The position numbers were made by a program, and so were the translations under genes. A stretch of 64,000 bases of DNA from positions 5,429 to 69,428 of the forward strand of contig JBBQXJ010000012.1 in the NCBI GenBank assembly GCA_038209745.1, read 5' to 3'. The stretch comes from Verrucomicrobiota bacterium. GTDB lineage: Bacteria > Verrucomicrobiota > Verrucomicrobiia > Limisphaerales > CANJSG01. The notes below the pieces were generated by a model, which was not told the DNA's origin, did not search any database, and saw only the letters and a program-made list of their open reading frames with translations. This document shows, one piece after another, positions 4,458-12,337 of this stretch (the stretch's first letter is position 1; each line of letters begins with the position of its first letter).

Positions 4458-4771
4458 TCCGCAAAGCCTTTGTCATGTCCGTCCATCCCGGCCAAGAAGC
4501 CGAGTATGGGCGGCGTCACAATCCCGTCTGGCCCGAGCTGGAAGCCGTCCTGAAGGATCACGGCGTGGCCCACTACTCCATCTTCCTCCACGCCGAAACC
4601 CGCCAGCTCTTCGCCTACGCCGAGATCGAGGACGAAGCCCGTTGGGCCGCCATCGCCCAGACCGGAGTTTGCCGCAAATGGTGGCACCACATGGCCGACC
4701 TGATGCCGGCCCATCCGGACAACAGCCCGGTTTCGGTTGAATTGCAGGAAGTCTTCCACATCGAGAAATGA
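4454..4771 (+). CDS. rhaM: L-rhamnose mutarotase
   Basis: GTG at 4454 overlaps the rhaB stop (GTGA). [29 protein letters not shown]...HYSIFL fits the RhaM/YiiL family at about 105 aa. Confidence 0.9.
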
Positions 4772-4808
4772 GCCACCGTCTTCAATCCCGAGGAGATTGT
4801 GTCCCTCA

Positions 4809-4973
4809 GCCCAAGGTTGCCGCGCAGCGGCTACTCTGGGTCACGATTGGAAACGACCATCAACCCCAACCGGGTTGCGTCTTTGGTCGGTCGCCAATGG
4901 ACACAACCCCTTCAAGGTTGGCTCAATCGTGGACCCCGATTCCCGGGGTAGCTCGTGCCTCGCAACCCTGGGC
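4809..4973. repeat. REPIN-like doublet: two inverted REP-like units related to the arms of the RAYT unit
   Basis: Unit L is 4809-4842 (GCCCAAGGTTGCCGCGCAGCGGCTACTCTGGGTC). The reverse complement of unit R (4942-4973) is GCCCAGGGTTGCGAGGCACGAGCTACCCCGGG, which matches unit L at 23/32. Unit L shares GCCCAAGG...CTCTGGGTC exactly with the left RAYT arm at 1358-1379. Confidence 0.6.
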
Positions 4974-5126
4974 TAAGTGCGGGGGTCCCGTCGGGATTCA
5001 CCGGAAGGACGAAATTCTCCACGCCGTGTCGGCGGGCCTCTTTGCGCCTCTTGTGCTTCTTTGCGGCCATCGCCTTCCCCCTTTCTCCCCCGCTCCCCTG
5101 CACCCCGTGCTCCGCCCAATCACCCC

Positions 5127-5846
5127 ATGATCGTCTCCCTCTTCATCCCGTGCTTCGTCGACCTGATGTATCCCAAGGTGGGCATCAGCATCGTCGAAAT
5201 CCTCGAACGTCTCGGCCACCGCATCGACTACCCGGAAGACCTCACCTGCTGCGGGCAGCCCGCCTTCAACTCCGGCTTTTGGGACGAAGCCCGCCAGGTC
5301 GCCCTGCCCGTCCTGCAACGACTGAAGAACTCCGAGGCCGTCGTCATCGCCTCCGGTTCCTGCGGCGCCATGCTCAAGGTCTTCTACCCGGAACTCTTCG
5401 CCGGCACCCCGCACGCCGCCGCCGCCAAGGAACTCTCGGCCAAGTGCTACGAGTTCTCCGACTTCCTCGTCACCAAGCTGGGCGTGACCGACCTCGGCGC
5501 CGCCTTCCCGCACAAGGTCACCATCCACGACGGTTGCCACGGCCTGCGTGAACTCGGACTGAAGAAAGGCGCCCGAGACTTGCTCGGCAAAGTGCGCGGA
5601 CTCGAACTCGTCGAGATGAAGGAGGCGGAAACCTGCTGCGGTTTCGGAGGCACCTTCGCGGCCAAGTTCCCCATGATCTCCACCGCGATGGGCGAGGTGA
5701 AATGCGCCTCGGCCTTCGACACCGGAGCCGACTACATCGTGTCGAACGACTCCAGTTGCCTGATGCAGGTCCAAGGACTGTTGAGCAAACAGGGCAACGG
5801 GCTGAAGACGATCCACTTGGCGGAGATCCTGAACTCAAGGGACTGA
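5127..5846 (+). CDS. lutA: Lactate utilization protein A, (Fe-S)-binding CCG-domain oxidoreductase
   Basis: 239 aa counted from the ATG at 5127. It carries two cysteine-rich CCG motifs ([12 protein letters not shown] and [10 protein letters not shown]). It lies in the gene order lutA-lutB-lutC. Confidence 0.9.
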
Positions 5847-6397
5847 TGCCGGATGCCGGATTCCAGACAAGAACAGAGAACGCGAAATGAGCGCGACCAA
5901 CTACAACGACGGAGCACGAGACGGCTCGGACGACGCGTTTGTGCTCAATAACGCCACGCCGGCGATGGGCTATCGCGCTCTGCAGATTTGGCAGCTCGCA
6001 AGGGACACGACCGTGACGGTCCACCGCATGACCTTGGAAAAGCAACCCCGCTTCGAGCTGCACGAAGAAGGCAGCCAAATACGCCGCTCCGCGAAGTCAG
6101 TTCGATCCAACATCGTCGAAGGCTTTGGTCGGCGGCGTTACAAGCAGGATTTCATCGAACACCTCGTCTACGCCGAAGCCTCCTGCGACGAGATCCGCGA
6201 CCATCTCGACACCTTGAACGAGACCGCTTCTCTGACCGACAAGCCATTCTACGACGGGTTGGTTCAGCAAGTGAACGAACTGGCCCGAAAGATCATCCGC
6301 TTCATCACCGCCGTGGAACAAAACCACCAGAGCCCGAAATGATCGTCACGATTTCATCCTTCGCTTCCTTTCGCCGCCATCCGGCATCCGGAATCAG
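5843..6397. mobile_element. Cassette bounded by 19-bp inverted repeats, carrying the four-helix-bundle gene
   Basis: CTGATGCCGGATGCCGGAT at 5843-5861 matches the reverse complement of 6379-6397 (CTGATTCCGGATGCCGGAT) at 18/19. The left repeat contains the lutA stop codon. Removing the insert would leave about 40 nt between lutA and lutB. Confidence 0.6.
5887..6342 (+). CDS. Four-helix-bundle protein (23S rRNA intervening-sequence protein / Avd-like family)
   Basis: Family signature ...[43 protein letters not shown]... is present. An alternative ATG lies at 5965. GC content is slightly lower than in the flanks. Confidence 0.85.
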
Positions 6398-6421
6398 GCA
6401 TCCTGGATCACCCCTTCTCCC

Positions 6422-7816
6422 ATGACCACCGAAGTCCAAGAATTCAAACAGCAGGCCACCAAGGTCGCCGCCGATCTCCGCCACCGGAAGCACATCCAGA
6501 CCGCGCTCGGCAAATACGAGGTCGTCCGCGACAAGCGCAAGAACGCCTTCCAGAGCTGGAACGACGCCCGCCAGATCGCCGCCGAGACCAAGTGGGAGGC
6601 CATCAACCACCTCGACGAACACCTCGTCTCCTTCGCCGACAAGCTGGAGGCCCGCGGCACCCATGTCCATTGGGCCACCACCGCCACCCAGGCCCGCAAC
6701 ATCATCCTCGGCCTCATCCAGGCGAAGGGCGCCAAATCCATCATCAAGTCCAAGGCCATGACCGCCGAGGAGATCCACCTCAACCCCGCGCTGGAGAAGG
6801 CCGGCTTCGAGGTCGTTGAATCCGATCTCGGCGAATACATCGTCCAGCTCCGCAACGAGCCGCCCTACCACATCGTCTTCCCGGCGATGCACCTCGACCG
6901 GCACCAGATCAGCGAGCTCTTTGAGAAGCACCTCGGCAGCGCGAAGACCGACAGTCCCGAGGAACTCACCATGATCGCCCGGCGCGCCCTCCGGGAAAAA
7001 TACATCACCGCCGACGTCGGCATCACCGGGGCCAACTTCGCCATCGCCGAGACCGGCATGGTTTCCATCACGGAAAACGAGGGCAACGCCCGCCTCACCG
7101 CCGCGCTGCCCAGGACCATGATCACTCTGCTCGGCATCGAGAAGGTGCTCCCGCGCATGGCCGATCTCGCGCTTTTCCTGCCCATGCTCGCCACCGCCGG
7201 CGCCGGCCAGCAGATCACCGGCTACAACACCATGTATTCCGGCCCGCGCCAGCCCGGCGAAGCCGACGGACCCGAGGAATACCACGTCGTCCTCATCGAC
7301 AACCACCGCACCGAGCTCCTGGCCGATCCCGAACAGCGCGACACCCTCCACTGCATCCGTTGCGGCGCCTGCCTGAACGTCTGCCCCATCTTCAAGAACG
7401 TCGGCGGCCACACCTACGGCACCACCTACAGCGGCCCCATCGGCTCCGTCATCACCCCGCACCTGCGCGGGTTGCAGAACTGGAAACACCTCTCCTTCTC
7501 CTCCTCCCTCTGCGGCGCCTGCACCGAAGCCTGCCCGGTGAAGATCAACCTCCACCACCACCTCCTGCACAACCGCCGCAACTCGGTGAAACAGGAACCC
7601 GACCCGCAGGAACGCGTCGCCTTCAAGCTCTTCGCCTGGGGCATGAACAGCCCCGGTGTCTATGCCGCCGGCAAGAGCGTCGCCCGCTGGCTCGCCCCGC
7701 TGCACAAGCTGGTCATGGGAACCTTCCTCGACCCCGCCAAATCCTGGACCAAGACCCGCGACCTCCCGCCCATCGCCGAGACGACCTTCAAGGAATATTG
7801 GAAGAACCGGCAGTGA
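6422..7816 (+). CDS. lutB: Lactate utilization protein B (4Fe-4S ferredoxin-type)
   Basis: 464 aa with two Fe-S motifs (CIRCGACLNVCP and CGACTEACP) plus an LUD-type domain. Confidence 0.95.
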   Translation: MTTEVQEFKQQATKVAADLRHRKHIQTALGKYEVVRDKRKNAFQSWNDARQIAAETKWEAINHLDEHLVSFADKLEARGTHVHWATTATQARNIILGLIQAKGAKSIIKSKAMTAEEIHLNPALEKAGFEVVESDLGEYIVQLRNEPPYHIVFPAMHLDRHQISELFEKHLGSAKTDSPEELTMIARRALREKYITADVGITGANFAIAETGMVSITENEGNARLTAALPRTMITLLGIEKVLPRMADLALFLPMLATAGAGQQITGYNTMYSGPRQPGEADGPEEYHVVLIDNHRTELLADPEQRDTLHCIRCGACLNVCPIFKNVGGHTYGTTYSGPIGSVITPHLRGLQNWKHLSFSSSLCGACTEACPVKINLHHHLLHNRRNSVKQEPDPQERVAFKLFAWGMNSPGVYAAGKSVARWLAPLHKLVMGTFLDPAKSWTKTRDLPPIAETTFKEYWKNRQ

Positions 7817-7866
7817 CCGTGGGGTAGGATTGCAGCCCAGCCGCCCAACTGATTTCTTAACCACAG

Positions 7867-8271
7867 ATGAACACGGATGGACACAGATCAGCCAAGCTTC
7901 GCCTGCTTGGGGATTATCGCGGCAACCCGGCTGAACTGTTCGATGGTTTTGAGCCTGATCAGCTACCGTTCAATCCAGATGCCTTTGGAATAACCGGCTA
8001 TGAAACGGTTGATTTGGTGAAGAGCGCATTGTCGGCTCCGCCTCCGGGTTCTTCCGAAAAGGAACTTCTTGATACGATCTGTTCGTCTGTTTCACCCAGG
8101 GTCCAAGTTTGGAACAAGTCAGCCGGATGCATCGAATCGCGTTCCGGCTACTACGCATTCTCGGCTTCACAAAGCGACTCGGGACGACTCGCCATCTTGT
8201 ATTCGTTCTTCGAGGTCTCACCGATGAGGTACCACGCCTACCTGCACGCCATTCTTCAGATCGATTTTTGA
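7867..8271 (+). CDS. Hypothetical protein (cassette ORF 1)
   Basis: 134-aa ORF whose ATG lies inside the left repeat, so the N-terminal MNTDGHRS is repeat-encoded. It has no recognisable family. It may be coding or may be spurious. Confidence 0.35.
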   Translation: MNTDGHRSAKLRLLGDYRGNPAELFDGFEPDQLPFNPDAFGITGYETVDLVKSALSAPPPGSSEKELLDTICSSVSPRVQVWNKSAGCIESRSGYYAFSASQSDSGRLAILYSFFEVSPMRYHAYLHAILQIDF

Positions 8272-8320
8272 TGAATCGCCTGAGAGAAACGTAATCGAAC
8301 TGACTTCATCTCAACCGCAC

Positions 8321-8668
8321 ATGAACACCTTCAACGAAACCTTCGGCTTCATCTTCGCCTTGTGCGCCGGAGTCATGATCTTGGCCGTCTTCTTCACGGC
8401 TCTTGGCTATCTCAAGAGAGGGGTTCGTGGTCCTGGGGTGCTGAAGATGAAGGGCTTTGTCCGGGAGGGTAAGCGGATCAACGTCCATCTGGCTGGCGGC
8501 CGCACCTTGGAAAACTTTCAGTTCGTCGGCTTCACCGAGCAGAACTCAGCCAAAGGAGTGATCCCCTATCAGTTGGCCAGCATGGCCGTCTTCGAGTGCG
8601 AAACGGGATCGAGAGCCATGGTCCGAGCCGATTCGATCCGTATGATCGAGGAAATAGACGCCACCTAA
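8321..8668 (+). CDS. Hypothetical small membrane-anchored protein (cassette ORF 2)
   Basis: 115 aa with one N-terminal TM helix (FGFIFALCAGVMILAVFFTALGYL). This is followed by an ~85-aa beta-rich domain (KRINVHLAGGRTLENFQFVGF...). Confidence 0.45.
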   Translation: MNTFNETFGFIFALCAGVMILAVFFTALGYLKRGVRGPGVLKMKGFVREGKRINVHLAGGRTLENFQFVGFTEQNSAKGVIPYQLASMAVFECETGSRAMVRADSIRMIEEIDAT

Positions 8669-8680
8669 TCGCTCCGCCTT

Positions 8681-8743
8681 GTTCCCTATCTGTGTGAATC
8701 TGTGTCCATCTGTGGTTGTCCTCTTCCCCCATGACTGAACGCG
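8681..8743 (-). repeat. Direct repeat copy A: the 28-nt repeat fused to a copy of the lutC start region
   Basis: ATCTGTGTGAATCTGTGTCCATCTGTGG (8688-8715) is followed by TTGTCCTCTTCCCCCATGACTGAACGCG. The last 13 nt are identical to the real lutC start at 9128-9140. Confidence 0.8.
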
Positions 8744-8997
8744 CTTCAACGCCCCAACCCAAACCAGCGGCAGCCATTAGCTGGAGGTCGAGGAGCGCGT
8801 TGCGCGACGACACCTCCGATTCGCCGCCCAAACATTCACGACCCCATCGGGATCGCAGCAGGCCGCCAACCTCCAATTCCGCTGGCATCCTTTCCGGATG
8901 CGTCCCGTGGCTCCGCCCGGTCCGGGCGTGTCGCTCCGCTCAACCCCCGGCCAATCGCTGTCAGCCTTCCAGGCTGAAGACAGACCGATCCTTCGTC

Positions 8998-9058
8998 GTT
9001 TCCCATCTGTGTGAATCTGTGTCCATCTGTGGTTTCTCCACTTCCCCGACTGAACGCG
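8998..9058 (-). repeat. Direct repeat copy B: the 28-nt repeat fused to a degraded copy of the lutC start region
   Basis: 9005-9032 is 28/28 identical to 8688-8715. It is followed by TTTCTCCACTTCCCC-GACTGAACGCG, in which the ATG has been lost. Confidence 0.8.
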
Positions 9059-9127
9059 TAGCGACTCCCGCTACCTTTCCCCGTCTGCGTCCTTCCGCAT
9101 TTTCCGCGGTTAACTCCCCCTTCTCCC

Positions 9128-9835
9128 ATGACTGAACGCGAAAAAATCCTCGGCCGCATCCGCGAAGCCCTGACCCTCTCCGCCCCGCCTCCCGGCGAAC
9201 ACGGACCGGACACCGACGCCCACGGCGGGCACCCGATCCAATTCGCCCCGCGTGCCGCCGCCACCCACGCCCGCGAGTGGTTGCCCAAGGCCGCGGAGAC
9301 CTTCGAGGCGCAGGTCGAGCAGTTCCGCGCCTGCTCGGACGATCTCAAGACCGAGTTCATCGTCGCCGATTCGTTGGCCGACTTGCCCAAGATCCTCGGC
9401 GATCTCCGCCAACGCGAAGGCTGGAAGGGAGCCGCCGCGCACAAGGGCGAATTGACCGACGCCGCCGTCCACGCCTTGGGCCTGCCCACGCTGACCGTCG
9501 ACGGCGGCTACGACGTCCACGCGCTGGAGCGTTGCGACGTCGGCATCACCGAATGCGACGCGCTCGTGGCCCAGACCGGCACGCTCGTCGTCAACTCCCG
9601 CACCTCCGGCGGACGCGCCCTGTCCATTCTGCCGCCGCACCACCTGGTCATCGCCCGGCGCGACCAGCTCATGGCCGATCTCCCCGCCGCCTTCGAGGCC
9701 ATCCAGGCCAAATACGCGCCGGACTTTCCCAGCATGATCTCCCTCGTCACCGGCCCCAGCCGCACCGGCGACATCGAGCGCATCCTCGTCCTCGGCGCCC
9801 ACGGCCCGAAGAAACTGACCGTCGTGCTGGTCTGA
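9128..9835 (+). CDS. lutC: Lactate utilization protein C (LUD domain)
   Basis: 235 aa with YkgG/LutC-type LUD-domain motifs (DVGITECDALVAQTGTLVV and LPPHHLVIARRDQL). Confidence 0.9.
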   Translation: MTEREKILGRIREALTLSAPPPGEHGPDTDAHGGHPIQFAPRAAATHAREWLPKAAETFEAQVEQFRACSDDLKTEFIVADSLADLPKILGDLRQREGWKGAAAHKGELTDAAVHALGLPTLTVDGGYDVHALERCDVGITECDALVAQTGTLVVNSRTSGGRALSILPPHHLVIARRDQLMADLPAAFEAIQAKYAPDFPSMISLVTGPSRTGDIERILVLGAHGPKKLTVVLV

Positions 9836-10078
9836 ATGGTCGATCAGCCACAGCACCGTCGCGGTGAGCGTGCTCCGCGCCGATTGCGCCCAAGCCGATG
9901 CTTGGGGCGCGGCTCTCAATGTCCTCGGGGCCGATCACGGACTTGCCGCCGCGGACAAGCTTGGGCTTGCCGTCCAGTTCACCGTCGAGGATGAAGACGG
10001 GGCGCTGTGGCTGGTTCCAAGCCATTGGCGGCCCGCCCGATAAGCGAAACTTCATCCGATTCAACCGCGTCTACCCGC

Positions 10079-12337
10079 ATGGTGCGTCTGCTCCGAACAC
10101 GTCTCTGGATCGTCCCGTTGATCATCGCCGGGCTGGTGGCGGCATTTGGCTGGTGGGGCAACGGCCGGCTCCGGCAGGTCATCGTCACAGACCTGCAGGG
10201 CGACCTTTCGACGGCCATCAATGCCAACGTGACCGCGTTGGAGATCTGGACCACCAACCAGATGAAGCTGGCCACCGCGCTGGCGGATGAGCCCAGATTC
10301 CGCCAGCTCGCCGATCAAACTCTCGAGCAGTTCGCCGCGAATCCCCGGCCAAACCAGGGATCCTCCAGTGCCGAGGAGTTGGCGACGTATCTCCGTCCGA
10401 GACTGAACAAGATCGGCTATGAGATCGCCGAGCTGGTGAGCACGAACTTCTCCTTCGCCGCCAATACGATGAGCCCGCGCGGCCGGAGCCGCCGCAACTC
10501 GACGGTGCTGGACGAGCACATGGCGAAGTTCGCCGAGCTGTTCACCCACGGTGAGCCGATTCTGATCACGCCGTTCAAACCGAAACGGCCACCGGGGCCC
10601 TCTCCGTTTCAAGGACGCCGCGACGGACCGGCGCGCCCCGAAGGAGGACCCGGACGAGGCTTAGACGACCGCCCACCGTCCCGGCGGACCAATGAGCCGC
10701 CCGCCCGGATCGGCGCGGCCCTGAACCGCGCCCGCATGGGCGACCGGACGTTGATGCAGGTCGCGGCGCCGGTGCGGAACGACGACGGCGTGATCCTTGG
10801 GGCGTTGGCCCTGATCATCAATCCGGACGAGGAGTTCACCCGGATCCTGTCGGTCGCCAGGTCGGGTCGCTCGGGGGAAACGTATGCGTTCGACCAGCAC
10901 GGTCTGATGATTTCACGCAGCCGTTTCGACGATACGCTCAAGCAGCTTGGGCTCATCGAAAACCGTGCCGGAGCCAGTTCCGCGCTGAATCTGCGGCTCA
11001 GCGATCCAGGCAGGGACTTCCCGACCCGGGTCGAGCCCGAGGAGACCAATTCGATCACGCGCCCCCTGATCCAACTCGTGTCCTCGGCCTTCGCGACGAA
11101 CCAAGGTGTGAGCATCTCCGCAGCGCGCGACTACCGCGGAGTGCCCGTGATCGGAGCGTGGCACTGGCTGCCGCACCTGGGCTTCGGCGTGATCACGCAG
11201 ATCGACGCGGAGGAGGCCTTCCGCCCGTTGAACGTCCTCAAATCGATCTTCCTGATCCTCGTTCTGCTGTTGCTGCTGTGTTCCATCGGCATGTTCGTCT
11301 TTTCCTATCTCGGCTCGATTTCCAGACGGCGTCTGACCGAGGTGGAGCTGAAGCTGAAACAGCTCGGCCAATACACGCTGGAGGAGAAGATCGGCGAGGG
11401 AGGCATGGGCGTCGTCTACCGCGCCCGCCATGCGCTCATGCGCCGCGACACCGCCGTGAAGCTGCTCCCGCCCGACAAGGCCCATCCCGAGGCCATCGCC
11501 CGTTTCGAGCGCGAAGTCTGCCTCACCTGCCAGCTCACCCATCCGAACACCATCCAGGTCTACGACTACGGCCACACGCCCGAAGGCGTCTTCTACTTCG
11601 CCATGGAGTATCTCAACGGCCTGAACCTCCACGATCTGGTCGATCGCTTCGGCCCGCTGCCCGAAGGCCGCGTGATCCACATCCTGACGCAGGTCTGCGC
11701 CTCCCTCGCCGAAGCCCACGCGCTCGGCCTCGTCCACCGCGACATCAAGCCGGCCAATGTCTTCCTCTGCGACCGGGGTGGCCTGCCCGATCTCGTGAAG
11801 GTGCTGGATTTCGGCCTCGTGCGACAGTTCCTGAAAGCCGATGGCGCCGTGCCCGACGCGACCCCCGAGAGGGGCGCGGTCGGCACGCCCTCGTTCATGT
11901 CTCCGGAGGCGATCCGCGATCCCAACCGCAGCGATCCCCGCAGCGACATCTACGCGATCGGCGCGCTCGGCTACTTCCTCCTCACCGCCCACAACGTCTT
12001 CGAAGGCGACAATCTCGTCGACCTCTACGCCCGCCACTTGAAGGAGCGCCCAGCCCAGCCCAGCAGCCGCACCGACAACAAGATCACGCCCGAGCTCGAA
12101 CAGATCTTGCTGAAATGCCTGGAGAAAGATCCCGCTAACCGCCCGCCCCACGTCGTCCGTCTGCGCGAACAATTTGCGACCAGCCCGGCGGCGGCCGATT
12201 GGAGCCCGGTCGCCCGCTCCAGCTGGTGGAACCAATACCATCGCGAAGCCGGCAACGAAGAGGCTTCGCGCCGCCACCCCACCCCGATCGCCGACGCCAC
12301 GGTCCTGATCGATTTCGCGACCCGGATCCACGAGTGA
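10079..12337 (+). CDS. Transmembrane Ser/Thr protein kinase with an N-terminal Cache-like extracytoplasmic sensor
   Basis: Hanks kinase motifs are present (GEGGMGVVYRA, HRDIKPANV, DFG, SPE). The kinase is preceded by a TM helix, a ~380-aa ectodomain and a second TM helix. The ATG at 10079 (MVRLLRTRLWIVPLIIAG) is preferred over the ORF-track start at 10007. Confidence 0.85.
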   Translation: MVRLLRTRLWIVPLIIAGLVAAFGWWGNGRLRQVIVTDLQGDLSTAINANVTALEIWTTNQMKLATALADEPRFRQLADQTLEQFAANPRPNQGSSSAEELATYLRPRLNKIGYEIAELVSTNFSFAANTMSPRGRSRRNSTVLDEHMAKFAELFTHGEPILITPFKPKRPPGPSPFQGRRDGPARPEGGPGRGLDDRPPSRRTNEPPARIGAALNRARMGDRTLMQVAAPVRNDDGVILGALALIINPDEEFTRILSVARSGRSGETYAFDQHGLMISRSRFDDTLKQLGLIENRAGASSALNLRLSDPGRDFPTRVEPEETNSITRPLIQLVSSAFATNQGVSISAARDYRGVPVIGAWHWLPHLGFGVITQIDAEEAFRPLNVLKSIFLILVLLLLLCSIGMFVFSYLGSISRRRLTEVELKLKQLGQYTLEEKIGEGGMGVVYRARHALMRRDTAVKLLPPDKAHPEAIARFEREVCLTCQLTHPNTIQVYDYGHTPEGVFYFAMEYLNGLNLHDLVDRFGPLPEGRVIHILTQVCASLAEAHALGLVHRDIKPANVFLCDRGGLPDLVKVLDFGLVRQFLKADGAVPDATPERGAVGTPSFMSPEAIRDPNRSDPRSDIYAIGALGYFLLTAHNVFEGDNLVDLYARHLKERPAQPSSRTDNKITPELEQILLKCLEKDPANRPPHVVRLREQFATSPAAADWSPVARSSWWNQYHREAGNEEASRRHPTPIADATVLIDFATRIHE

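Follow-up and report, generated by a model that had tools for sequence, protein, structure and literature searches.

Array-ended gene cassettes and a probably composite insertion between lutB and lutC in a Verrucomicrobiota genome

Small repeat-bounded elements of three described kinds come closest to the DNA considered here, the interval between the lactate-utilisation genes lutB and lutC in a 64-kb window of the source genome, that of a Verrucomicrobiota bacterium (the window is the whole stretch analysed, and unlabelled coordinates are its positions). REPINs are inverted doublets of short intergenic repeats that form hairpins and leave no target-site duplication, and the RAYT gene, which encodes an IS200-like Y1 transposase, is bracketed by the same repeats; REP families are lineage-specific. 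Miniature inverted-repeat transposable elements (MITEs) supplied the model for an earlier note on this DNA. In Coxiella, the 23S rRNA intervening sequence (IVS), 428-444 nt in length, has a 28-bp stem, is excised by RNase III and carries one small open reading frame (ORF) (PMC4990558). Such sequences are lower in GC than their hosts and sporadically distributed, suggesting horizontal transfer, and since the 1990s it has been an open question where IVS-type elements come from and how they move (PMC4990558).

We find that the lutB-lutC junction is probably a slot that has been colonised more than once, and that it now holds a composite, non-autonomous derivative of a family of array-ended cassettes. 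The colonisers would be small promoterless gene cassettes whose ends are arrays with one heptamer (CACAGAT, or its variants CGCAGAT and CACGGAT) per 10 bp and a terminal AACC or GGTT. In its canonical form, such a cassette would measure about 430 bp and consist of inverted arrays around one GxxExxY nuclease gene with its ATG in the left array, occurring in bacteria and some archaea, while hairpins lacking a gene, and arrays joined to other small genes, would be its derivatives. The gap between lutB and lutC measures 1311 bp and contains, in order, a 42-bp spacer, a left arm, ORF1, ORF2, a right arm joined to a copy of the lutC leader, a filler and a second right arm; a further 58 bp separate the degenerate leader copy, which ends at 9058, from the true lutC leader:

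6422-7816, + strand: lutB, the upstream host gene (TIGR00273, E 1.4e-145, 485 bits, cut-off 445)
7859-7888, + strand: left arm, IR-L, composed of AACC and the units CACAGATGAA, CACGGATGGA and CACAGAT; full arm AACCACAGATGAACACGGATGGACACAGAT
7867-8271, + strand: ORF1, 134 aa, starting inside the left arm; putative recent cargo gene
8321-8668, + strand: ORF2, 115 aa, between ORF1 and the right arm; predicted membrane-anchored small beta-barrel protein
8681-8717, + strand: right arm copy 1, IR-R1 (arm proper 8688-8717), with units ATCTGTGTGA, ATCTGTGTCC and ATCTGTGGTT; full arm ATCTGTGTGAATCTGTGTCCATCTGTGGTT
8720-8743, + strand: copy of the lutC leader and start, CCTCTTCCCCCATGACTGAACGCG (repeat family D1, 92% identical to 9117-9140)
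8744-8997, no strand: non-coding filler of 254 bp, GC 0.65, between the two right-arm copies
8998-9058, + strand: right arm copy 2, IR-R2 (arm 9005-9034), with a degenerate leader (9035-9058, ATG changed to CCG); 95% identical in repeat family D2 and 71% in D1
9117-9835, + strand: true lutC leader and gene (ATG at 9128; lutC 9128-9835; LUD_dom, E 1e-28)

The gap differs from its flanks in composition. Across 7800-8700 the GC content in 200-bp windows is 0.50-0.575, compared with 0.62-0.72 in lutB and lutC, and GC at third codon positions (GC3) is 0.56 in ORF1 and 0.75 in ORF2, compared with 0.87-0.91 in lutA, lutB and lutC (0.91 in lutB). The segment between the two genes is thus compositionally foreign. 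The break described in the earlier note stands, although the trough lies mostly nearer 52-57% than the 50% given there. The host genes are securely assigned: LutB carries the Pfam domains LUD_dom, Fer4_8 and LutB_C, is a 4Fe-4S protein and passes the curated TIGR00273 cut-off, and lutC is 80-91% identical to the lutC genes of three relatives (L143, L005 and L012). An Rfam scan of 4500-10500 (E up to 1) returned no family and no rRNA match, a scan of the locus for sigma-70 promoters and terminators gave nothing above chance, and a metagenome scan for the exact lutC 5' end gave 0 matches.

Phased heptamer arms and their cassette family

The arms are 30 nt each and 26/30 (87%) complementary; the 64 kb contain no better inverted repeat. 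Each is a 2.7-unit tandem array with a period of 10 bp; in IR-L, three heptamer units at 10-bp spacing enclose the ATG of ORF1 at 7867, and the terminal AACC and the GAA and GGA spacers agree with the consensus of the array family described below. That family is defined by at least two units of C[AG]CNGAT at 10-bp spacing with ends AACC or GGTT, and the window arms have this structure. When the 17-mer CACAGATGGACACAGAT was searched with up to 3 mismatches, all 6 matches in the 64 kb fell in the three arms, with 0.11 expected from shuffled sequence, and all three arms sit at the lutB-lutC locus. The third arm, at 9005-9034, is identical to the right arm at 8688-8717. The earlier note had correctly located the lutB stop at 7816, the lutC start at 9128 and an inverted pair of 28-mers (24/28 is right for those 28-mers); its two-arm bracket is real and non-random, but it overlooked the third copy and the 61-bp duplication to which that copy belongs. 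The inverted repeat spans 859 bp to IR-R1 and 1176 bp to IR-R2, with two conserved protein genes inside, and its flanks (GATTTCTT before AACC on the left; GTCCTCTT or TCTCCACT after GGTT on the right) have no direct repeat in common, so that there is no target-site duplication.

Arms of this kind are widespread. The pattern ATCTGTG-N3-ATCTGTG-N3-ATCTGTGG occurs at more than 119 loci in unrelated genomes of many phyla, among them Prevotella, Treponema, Acidobacteria, Cyanobacteria, Planctomycetes, Verrucomicrobia, Chloroflexi, NC10 and one archaeal metagenome-assembled genome (MAG), usually with the terminus AAC followed directly by CACAGAT and with GAA, AAA or GGA as spacers. An inverted partner lies within 1.6 kb of 95/158 arms from other genomes and of none in the shuffled control, bearing out the earlier suggestion that the repeat might recur as inverted pairs around variable cargo. 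The three-unit CACAGAT pattern is also present in 33 viral contigs (IMG/VR, L300-L332), several times as inverted pairs, making viruses possible vehicles of spread across phyla.

The cargo between paired arms points to one nuclease family. Loops are mostly either shorter than 140 bp, forming gene-less hairpins, or 360-560 bp long, and all five pairs with a 380-480-bp interior, together with L022, contain a single PDDEXK_3 gene that takes its ATG from the arm. We also sampled from the protein side, taking the 80 best GxxExxY loci (PDDEXK_3, PF13366; TIGR04256) without selecting for repeats. In 61/80 of these, an L-type array of at least two units is followed 300-800 bp on by an R-type array (0/80 in shuffles), a fraction that may overstate the family-wide one, since the 80 loci are those most similar to an array-flanked query. 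The span of these cassettes has a median of 432 bp and a range of 335-800 bp, and a general inverted-repeat finder detected an inverted repeat of at least 18 nt at 64/80 loci. With the start codon in the arm, the nucleases acquire N-termini such as MNTD, MNAD and MHTD (TIGR04256, E 5e-43). Arm variants include CACAGAT, CGCAGAT, CGCGGAT, CGCCGAT and CACGGAT, and GxxExxY genes of archaeal MAGs lie between related variants. Genes for RhuM, XisI, HIUase and an MFS transporter likewise begin within an arm. Around 64 array-bounded GxxExxY cassettes, flanks identical over 2-6 nt were no commoner than in shuffles.

The earlier note named no mobilising enzyme; the GxxExxY PD-(D/E)XK nuclease is now a candidate, by association only, and we know of no transposition activity in this family. 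The window locus shares the arms and the arm-borne start codon of a GxxExxY cassette but neither its cargo nor its size (859 bp), and neither ORF1 nor ORF2 matches PDDEXK_3 or TIGR04256. Hairpins from six hairpin-bearing loci have no match in Rfam. A literature search, which left most subscription journals outside it, found nothing describing the arrays or their GxxExxY link, so that a prior description is possible, and the literature on cyanobacterial 'small dispersed repeats' offered no useful lead.

Might the arrays instead belong to the host, as cis-regulatory or RNA-processing elements (a phased protein-binding array, or a stem in the lutC message), with ORF1 and ORF2 as ordinary accessory genes? 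The right arm lies a constant 13 nt ahead of a lutC-type ATG in both window copies, in L005 and in L143, similar arrays stand 11-17 nt ahead of lutB in two further relatives (L156 and L165), and the 10-bp phasing places the heptamers on one helix face. The stem would also be stable as RNA, with an IR-L/IR-R duplex energy of -40.4 kcal/mol in silico, and when 7845-9045 is folded, IR-L pairs with IR-R2 in both the minimum-free-energy and the centroid structure. We nevertheless regard this explanation as unlikely. Near-identical arrays surround unrelated genes in Cyanobacteria, Acidobacteria, Planctomycetes, NC10 and others; variants surround GxxExxY genes of archaeal MAGs, and viral contigs contain matching arrays; at this one junction, some close relatives have the arrays and others do not; they are tied to one nuclease family; and no regulator is known.

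Arrays of other sequence were also seen. At L038 5340-5500 and L043 2560-2720, CACAGAT hairpins are nested in other inverted arrays of about 10-bp periodicity (CACCAAGG… and CACGGAG…), and several such array families therefore coexist. In the window itself, 5036-5065 is a 10-bp tandem array of GCCTCTTTGC, three times repeated, of a family distinct from the CACAGAT arrays.

Probable layers of the lutB-lutC slot

A LutC-anchored scan yielded 46 loci, almost all from Verrucomicrobiota of the subdivision 3, Pedosphaera or Limisphaerales kind. The gene order lutA-lutB-lutC, as expected of a lutABC lactate-utilisation operon, is found in at least 40 relatives, and in most of the 46 the genes abut or overlap by ATGA, providing the empty lutB-lutC sites for which the earlier note had suggested looking. 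Such empty sites belong to more distant relatives; among the closer ones, the content of the junction differs. L012 has lutB-ORF2-lutC and no arrays (LutC 86% and ORF2 63% identical to the window's). In L005 and L006 the order is lutB, ORF2, a two-unit right arm ATCTGTGTCCATCTGCGGTT and lutC (LutB 89% and ORF2 92% identical), with no ORF1, left arm or duplication. The closest named MAG, L143 (LutA 94% and LutB 92% identical), carries in the slot an unrelated gene for a 143-aa lipoprotein, the start of which, ATGAACTCAAACGAACGCAGATCTG, is a decayed two-unit array; after it come the same right arm, the pseudo-leader, a homologue of the filler stretch 8744-8859, a decayed array and lutC. ORF1 is absent from L005, L006, L012 and L143. 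Since ORF2 occupies the junction of relatives without ORF1, and L143 has a different gene there, the 855 bp between the 28-mers are not one unit. ORF2 precedes ORF1 in the slot, and by sequence comparison, ORF2 with the right arm appears to be the older layer and ORF1 with the left arm the newest.

The right side of the slot has been duplicated. There are three copies of the lutC leader and start (…CCCATGACTGAACGCG), at 8681-8743, 8998-9058 and 9117-9140, two of them joined to a right arm, and the 61-bp direct duplication 8681-8743 / 8998-9058 includes both the arm and the lutC leader and start. The duplicated right arm makes the right boundary ambiguous. L143 shares the pseudo-leader and the duplicated layout, which is therefore older than the divergence of the two; a recombination event joining the 61-bp repeats would restore the simple layout of L005. 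The intervening filler is not coding-like (GC3 0.57) and has no Rfam match over its 254 bp, and its first 115 bp or so (homologous stretch 8744-8859) are 83% identical to L143 3153-3268. Partial homology to this GC-rich region extends over L143 3153-3480. Neither the filler nor the ORF1 segment has a further copy within the window.

ORF1 owes its start to the arm, as the earlier note had seen. Its ATG lies within CAGATGAAC of arm unit 1, and its N-terminus, MNTDGHRSAK (about 10 residues), derives from the arm or the DNA beside it. Homologues of ORF1 begin some 10 residues further in, and the extension was therefore supplied by the arm. The homologues are 43-49% identical and share the strongly conserved motifs ELFDGFEP and ILFSFFEVSPMRYHAYLH. 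The family is rare: a word search found 2 homologues, and a profile search of 1.84 billion cluster representatives only 21 matches at E <= 0.001. The AlphaFold2 (AF2) model is of good quality (predicted local distance difference test, pLDDT, 85; predicted template-modelling score, pTM, 0.80), with residues 1-6 disordered, and fold searches of PDB and BFVD gave nothing below E 0.3. Neither ORF1 nor ORF2 has a family match in Pfam, NCBIfam, PADLOC or PHROG, upholding the view that the segment holds two small ORFs and no transposase or integrase.

Members of the ORF1 family were met in other settings. In P0023 (467 aa), the ORF1-like region follows a response-regulator receiver domain and precedes a hydrophobic C-terminal region; this fusion offers the family's sole functional clue, which does not suffice to infer a function. 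At L002 1500-4900 and L001 3900-6850, ORF1 homologues lie in runs of same-strand small ORFs adjoining genes for IS-type rve integrases, HNH, methyltransferase, EVE and RadC. In L002 a similar motif stands ahead of successive ORFs (…TTGACGTTCTGAAAATAAAATG and …TTTGACGTTATGAAAATATAATG), a repetition that suggests a cassette array. An integron cassette reading prompted by these small-ORF arrays was set aside, as the arms have no attC-like layout, and no integrase search was made.

ORF2 has a different background. Its AF2 model (pLDDT 77) consists of one helix (residues 2-36) followed by five strands, and Foldseek ranks DUF903 lipoproteins and Hfq highest, at E 0.015-0.2 (none reaching 0.001), target-normalised template-modelling scores of 0.6-0.72 and sequence identities of 11-17%. 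The Sm-like barrels of DUF903 (YgdI/YgdR) and Hfq have a five-stranded core of about 60 residues, as does the ORF2 model, and DUF903 proteins are membrane-tethered like ORF2, but the anchor of ORF2 is a transmembrane helix rather than a lipid, and ORF2 has no sequence-family match to DUF903 or Hfq. The earlier impression of an Sm/Hfq-like protein accordingly has some support from a weak structural match, while the barrel assignment itself is unproven. Seventeen homologues were aligned (A1), and the ratio of nonsynonymous to synonymous substitution rates (dN/dS) is 0.08 against L005 and 0.27 against L012; ORF2 is under purifying selection. At no fewer than 40 other loci its homologues are neither beside lut genes nor array-flanked, and homologues of ORF1 and ORF2 never co-occur elsewhere. 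ORF1 and ORF2 are both real genes, and their histories are different. The idea that ORF2 is typical array cargo was ruled out, with more than 40 homologue loci lacking both arrays and lut genes.

These comparisons bear directly on the interpretation of the earlier note, in which IR-L, ORF1, ORF2 and IR-R form a single 855-bp cargo-carrying, non-autonomous MITE-like transposon that arrived in one insertion. Such an event would fit the 26/30 complementarity of the arms and their rank as the best inverted repeat in the window, the lower GC of both ORFs relative to the host genes and the empty junctions of relatives, and L005 could in principle be a deletion derivative, as a 20-bp direct repeat (7855-7874 / 8309-8328, 85% identical) lies on both sides of the ORF1 segment. 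We consider it most improbable, however. ORF2 occurs without ORF1 and IR-L in L005 and L006 and without any array in L012, while L143 combines the same right arm with a different gene; the two ORFs differ in GC3 and are never found together elsewhere; the right arm is duplicated, with no target-site duplication; and the 859-bp span is twice the usual size for the family. The note had itself proposed that conservation of both ORFs at this junction without flanking repeats would count against it, and this was found for ORF2 only, which lacks the repeats in L012 and the left arm in L005 and L006.

Repeated colonisation accommodates these differences as layers. In the history that we propose, ORF2, with its putative Sm-like barrel, would already have lain between lutB and lutC, with a right array beside the lutC leader; the right array and leader would then have been duplicated around the 254-bp GC-rich filler; and ORF1 would have arrived last, behind a left array that provided its start codon and about 10 residues. 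Given layered arrival, the two members of the inverted pair would come from separate events, the newest insertion contributing its left end and an older one its right end. The arrays may be the sites at which cassettes enter or exchange, and a GxxExxY nuclease encoded elsewhere may act on them in trans, with ORF1-type cargo depending on that nuclease. The stem of about 30 bp in the operon transcript could be cut by RNase III, like 23S rRNA intervening sequences, and such a cut would free an ORF1-ORF2 mRNA beginning near the ATG. Complementarity in the arm spacers is 67% against a null of 49%, which is weak for an RNA stem under selection. Because this is only modestly above chance, we regard the invariant heptamer at 10-bp phase, a protein-binding signature, as a more telling feature than the RNA stem. 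Successive ATGs in an arm, being 10 nt apart, fall in different frames, which may let arms serve unrelated genes.

Several observations weigh against this history, alongside the modest complementarity of the arm spacers and the similarity-based choice of the 80 nuclease loci. Homologues of ORF2 elsewhere are never array-flanked, leaving the arrival of ORF2 itself as a cassette unsupported. The cassettes bear no target-site duplication or other mark of a defined insertion chemistry, and a hidden Markov model built from 5 cassette nucleases finds no GxxExxY gene, and hence no candidate for mobilisation in trans, in the 64-kb window. With only four sequences (the window, L143, L005 and L012), more than one branching order fits, and L005 may be ancestral or a deletion product. 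In L005 the right arm stands alone, as do about 40% of arms elsewhere, and the right end expected between ORF1 and ORF2 is missing, so that the arrival of ORF1 cannot be reconstructed as a simple insertion.

Other insertions in the lut operon

The junction between lutA and lutB of the window is occupied as well, by a cassette of the same architecture:

5127-5846, + strand: lutA, with CCG domains (Pfam, NCBIfam)
5843-6410, + strand: second cassette, between lutA and lutB, with inverted 7-bp arrays
5843-5867 (GATGCCG) and 6374-6410 (CCGGCAT), inverted: the 7-bp arrays of the second cassette, from array and inverted-repeat scans
5887-6342, + strand: four-helix-bundle (23S rRNA IVS protein) gene (PF05635, E 1.9e-22; TIGR02436, E 1.2e-23)

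The same four-helix-bundle cassette is present at the same junction in L143 and in L166, where the array has expanded to at least 15 units. Arrays of the CACAGAT family lie exactly at lut junctions in 7/46 of the relatives' loci, with 0.35 expected. Two of these seven are complete gene-less hairpins between lutA and lutB, at L153 1995-2100 and L158 1920-2062; by comparison with the empty site in L146, the inserted hairpin follows the last lutA codons, precedes the lutB ATG and adds a new lutA stop codon.

The empty junctions themselves look like arm ends. Both GAACCACCGATGAGCAC (lutA-lutB) and GGAACCGCAAATGAGCGAACGCGAA (lutB-lutC), and likewise GAACCACCGATGAGC and GGAACCGCAAATGAGCGAACGC, resemble the arm terminus GGAACC[A/G]CNGATGAAC. 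In 319 kb the terminus pattern has 12 matches against 2.2 expected, 7/12 of them at empty lut junctions, where stop/start overlaps fit the consensus GAACCRCNGATGA with 0-1 mismatch:

L146, positions 2101 and 3492: empty stop/start overlaps
L149, L184 and L163, position 3492: empty stop/start overlaps
L155, position 2101: empty stop/start overlap
L159, position 1861: empty stop/start overlap

This likeness could reflect a target preference, old footprints or an origin in place. In the last case, slippage would amplify the 10-bp unit of a stop/start overlap and fold-back (template switching) would make the inverted copy, with no transposition. The resemblance of GAACCACCGATGAGCAC and GGAACCGCAAATGAGCGAACGCGAA to the terminus and the excess of matches at empty junctions would suit such a process, and the number of units does vary, from 2 in L005 and 3 in the window to the expanded 7-bp array of L166. 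We think an origin in place very unlikely, as it leaves unexplained the foreign genes between the arms, the same arm in unrelated phyla and the tight link to GxxExxY, and the window's own lutB end (GAACCGGCAGTGA) is a poorer match to the terminus consensus.

Taken jointly, repeated colonisation of the lut operon and the nuclease link invite a broader reading, which we put forward tentatively and rate as possible rather than probable: that these arms terminate mobile cassettes of about 430 bp belonging to a class not yet described, found across bacteria and some archaea, with a GxxExxY nuclease as their own gene, a target preference, exchange of cargo and kinship to IVSs. Insertion would proceed without target-site duplication and prefer stop/start overlaps resembling the cassette's own terminus (GGAACC[A/G]CNGATGA), with overlaps of the GGAACCGCAGATGA type as the favoured, terminus-mimicking targets. 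Start codons in different frames would let the arms capture and express unrelated small genes and swap cargo at an occupied slot, and the lutB-lutC junction, where close relatives have ORF2, ORF1 plus ORF2 or a lipoprotein gene, would preserve a natural record of this exchange.

Further inserts were noted at these junctions. At L166 2895-3475, between lutB and lutC, a broken ORF pair lies within a near-perfect 30-nt inverted repeat (GGTGGGGCGAGACTCCGTCGAGCCCTGC / GCAGGGCTCGACGGAGTCTCGCCCCACC), an insert of another kind, likewise bounded by inverted repeats, in this slot; the ORFs have no Pfam match, and a guess that they might be RAYT-related is not claimed. Inserts at lut junctions of other relatives include DUF5069 and a methyltransferase. 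Upstream of lutA in the window, 4768-5130 is a GC-rich stretch with a spurious 120-aa ORF.

We group the locus with selfish small-gene cassettes bounded by inverted repeats, and the family taken as a whole has a fair chance of representing a class of mobile element not described before. Few uncharacterised small proteins of soil and aquatic bacteria are as numerous as the GxxExxY and four-helix-bundle 'IVS' proteins. The phased heptamer arms with their start codon provide both a defined nucleic-acid substrate for the GxxExxY nuclease and a signature by which such elements can be found, and the locus offers a natural time series of one slot: empty, with a gene-less hairpin, with one gene, with two genes and with a different gene. 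For annotation, the arrays create spurious N-terminal extensions and ORFs (peptides of the MNTDGHR and ICVHLW type) and split operons that are compact in relatives. The effect on lactate metabolism is probably neutral, with lutC keeping its own leader.

Comparison with described elements

The locus fails at least one defining feature each of MITEs, REPIN/RAYT systems and IVSs, while resembling all three. Like MITEs, the elements have terminal inverted repeats, no transposase inside, presence or absence between relatives and gene-less short forms; the window copy differs in being coding and composite, in lacking a target-site duplication and in its right arm, which is duplicated and also occurs alone. 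With REPIN/RAYT systems, the family shares hairpin-forming inverted doublets, a single-gene form bracketed by the repeats and the absence of target-site duplication. However, the enzyme linked to the arrays is a PD-(D/E)XK nuclease of about 125 aa rather than a Y1 transposase, no Y1 (RAYT) domain was found by Pfam in the ORFs of the locus, and the arm sequence is common to several phyla, holds a start codon and can front unrelated genes.

From 23S rRNA IVSs with an S23p ORF (Coxiella, Leptospira and others), the window element differs in lying in a protein-coding operon rather than in helix 25 or 45 of 23S rRNA, and conserved 23S motifs were found in none of the fetched loci. Its arms are phased heptamer arrays, whereas IVS arms are unique complementary sequences, and its cargo is ORF1 and ORF2, the usual cargo of these arms being the PD-(D/E)XK nuclease and not S23p. 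The likeness is nonetheless broad, extending to the size class (shared by IVSs and the GxxExxY cassettes with their 432-bp median), terminal inverted repeats with a stem of about 28-30 bp, a small ORF inside, low GC and sporadic distribution. Furthermore, the neighbouring lutA-lutB cassette encodes an IVS-type four-helix-bundle protein between inverted arrays. Under the tentative joint reading given above, ORF-bearing 23S rRNA intervening sequences would be rRNA-resident cousins of the array-ended cassettes.

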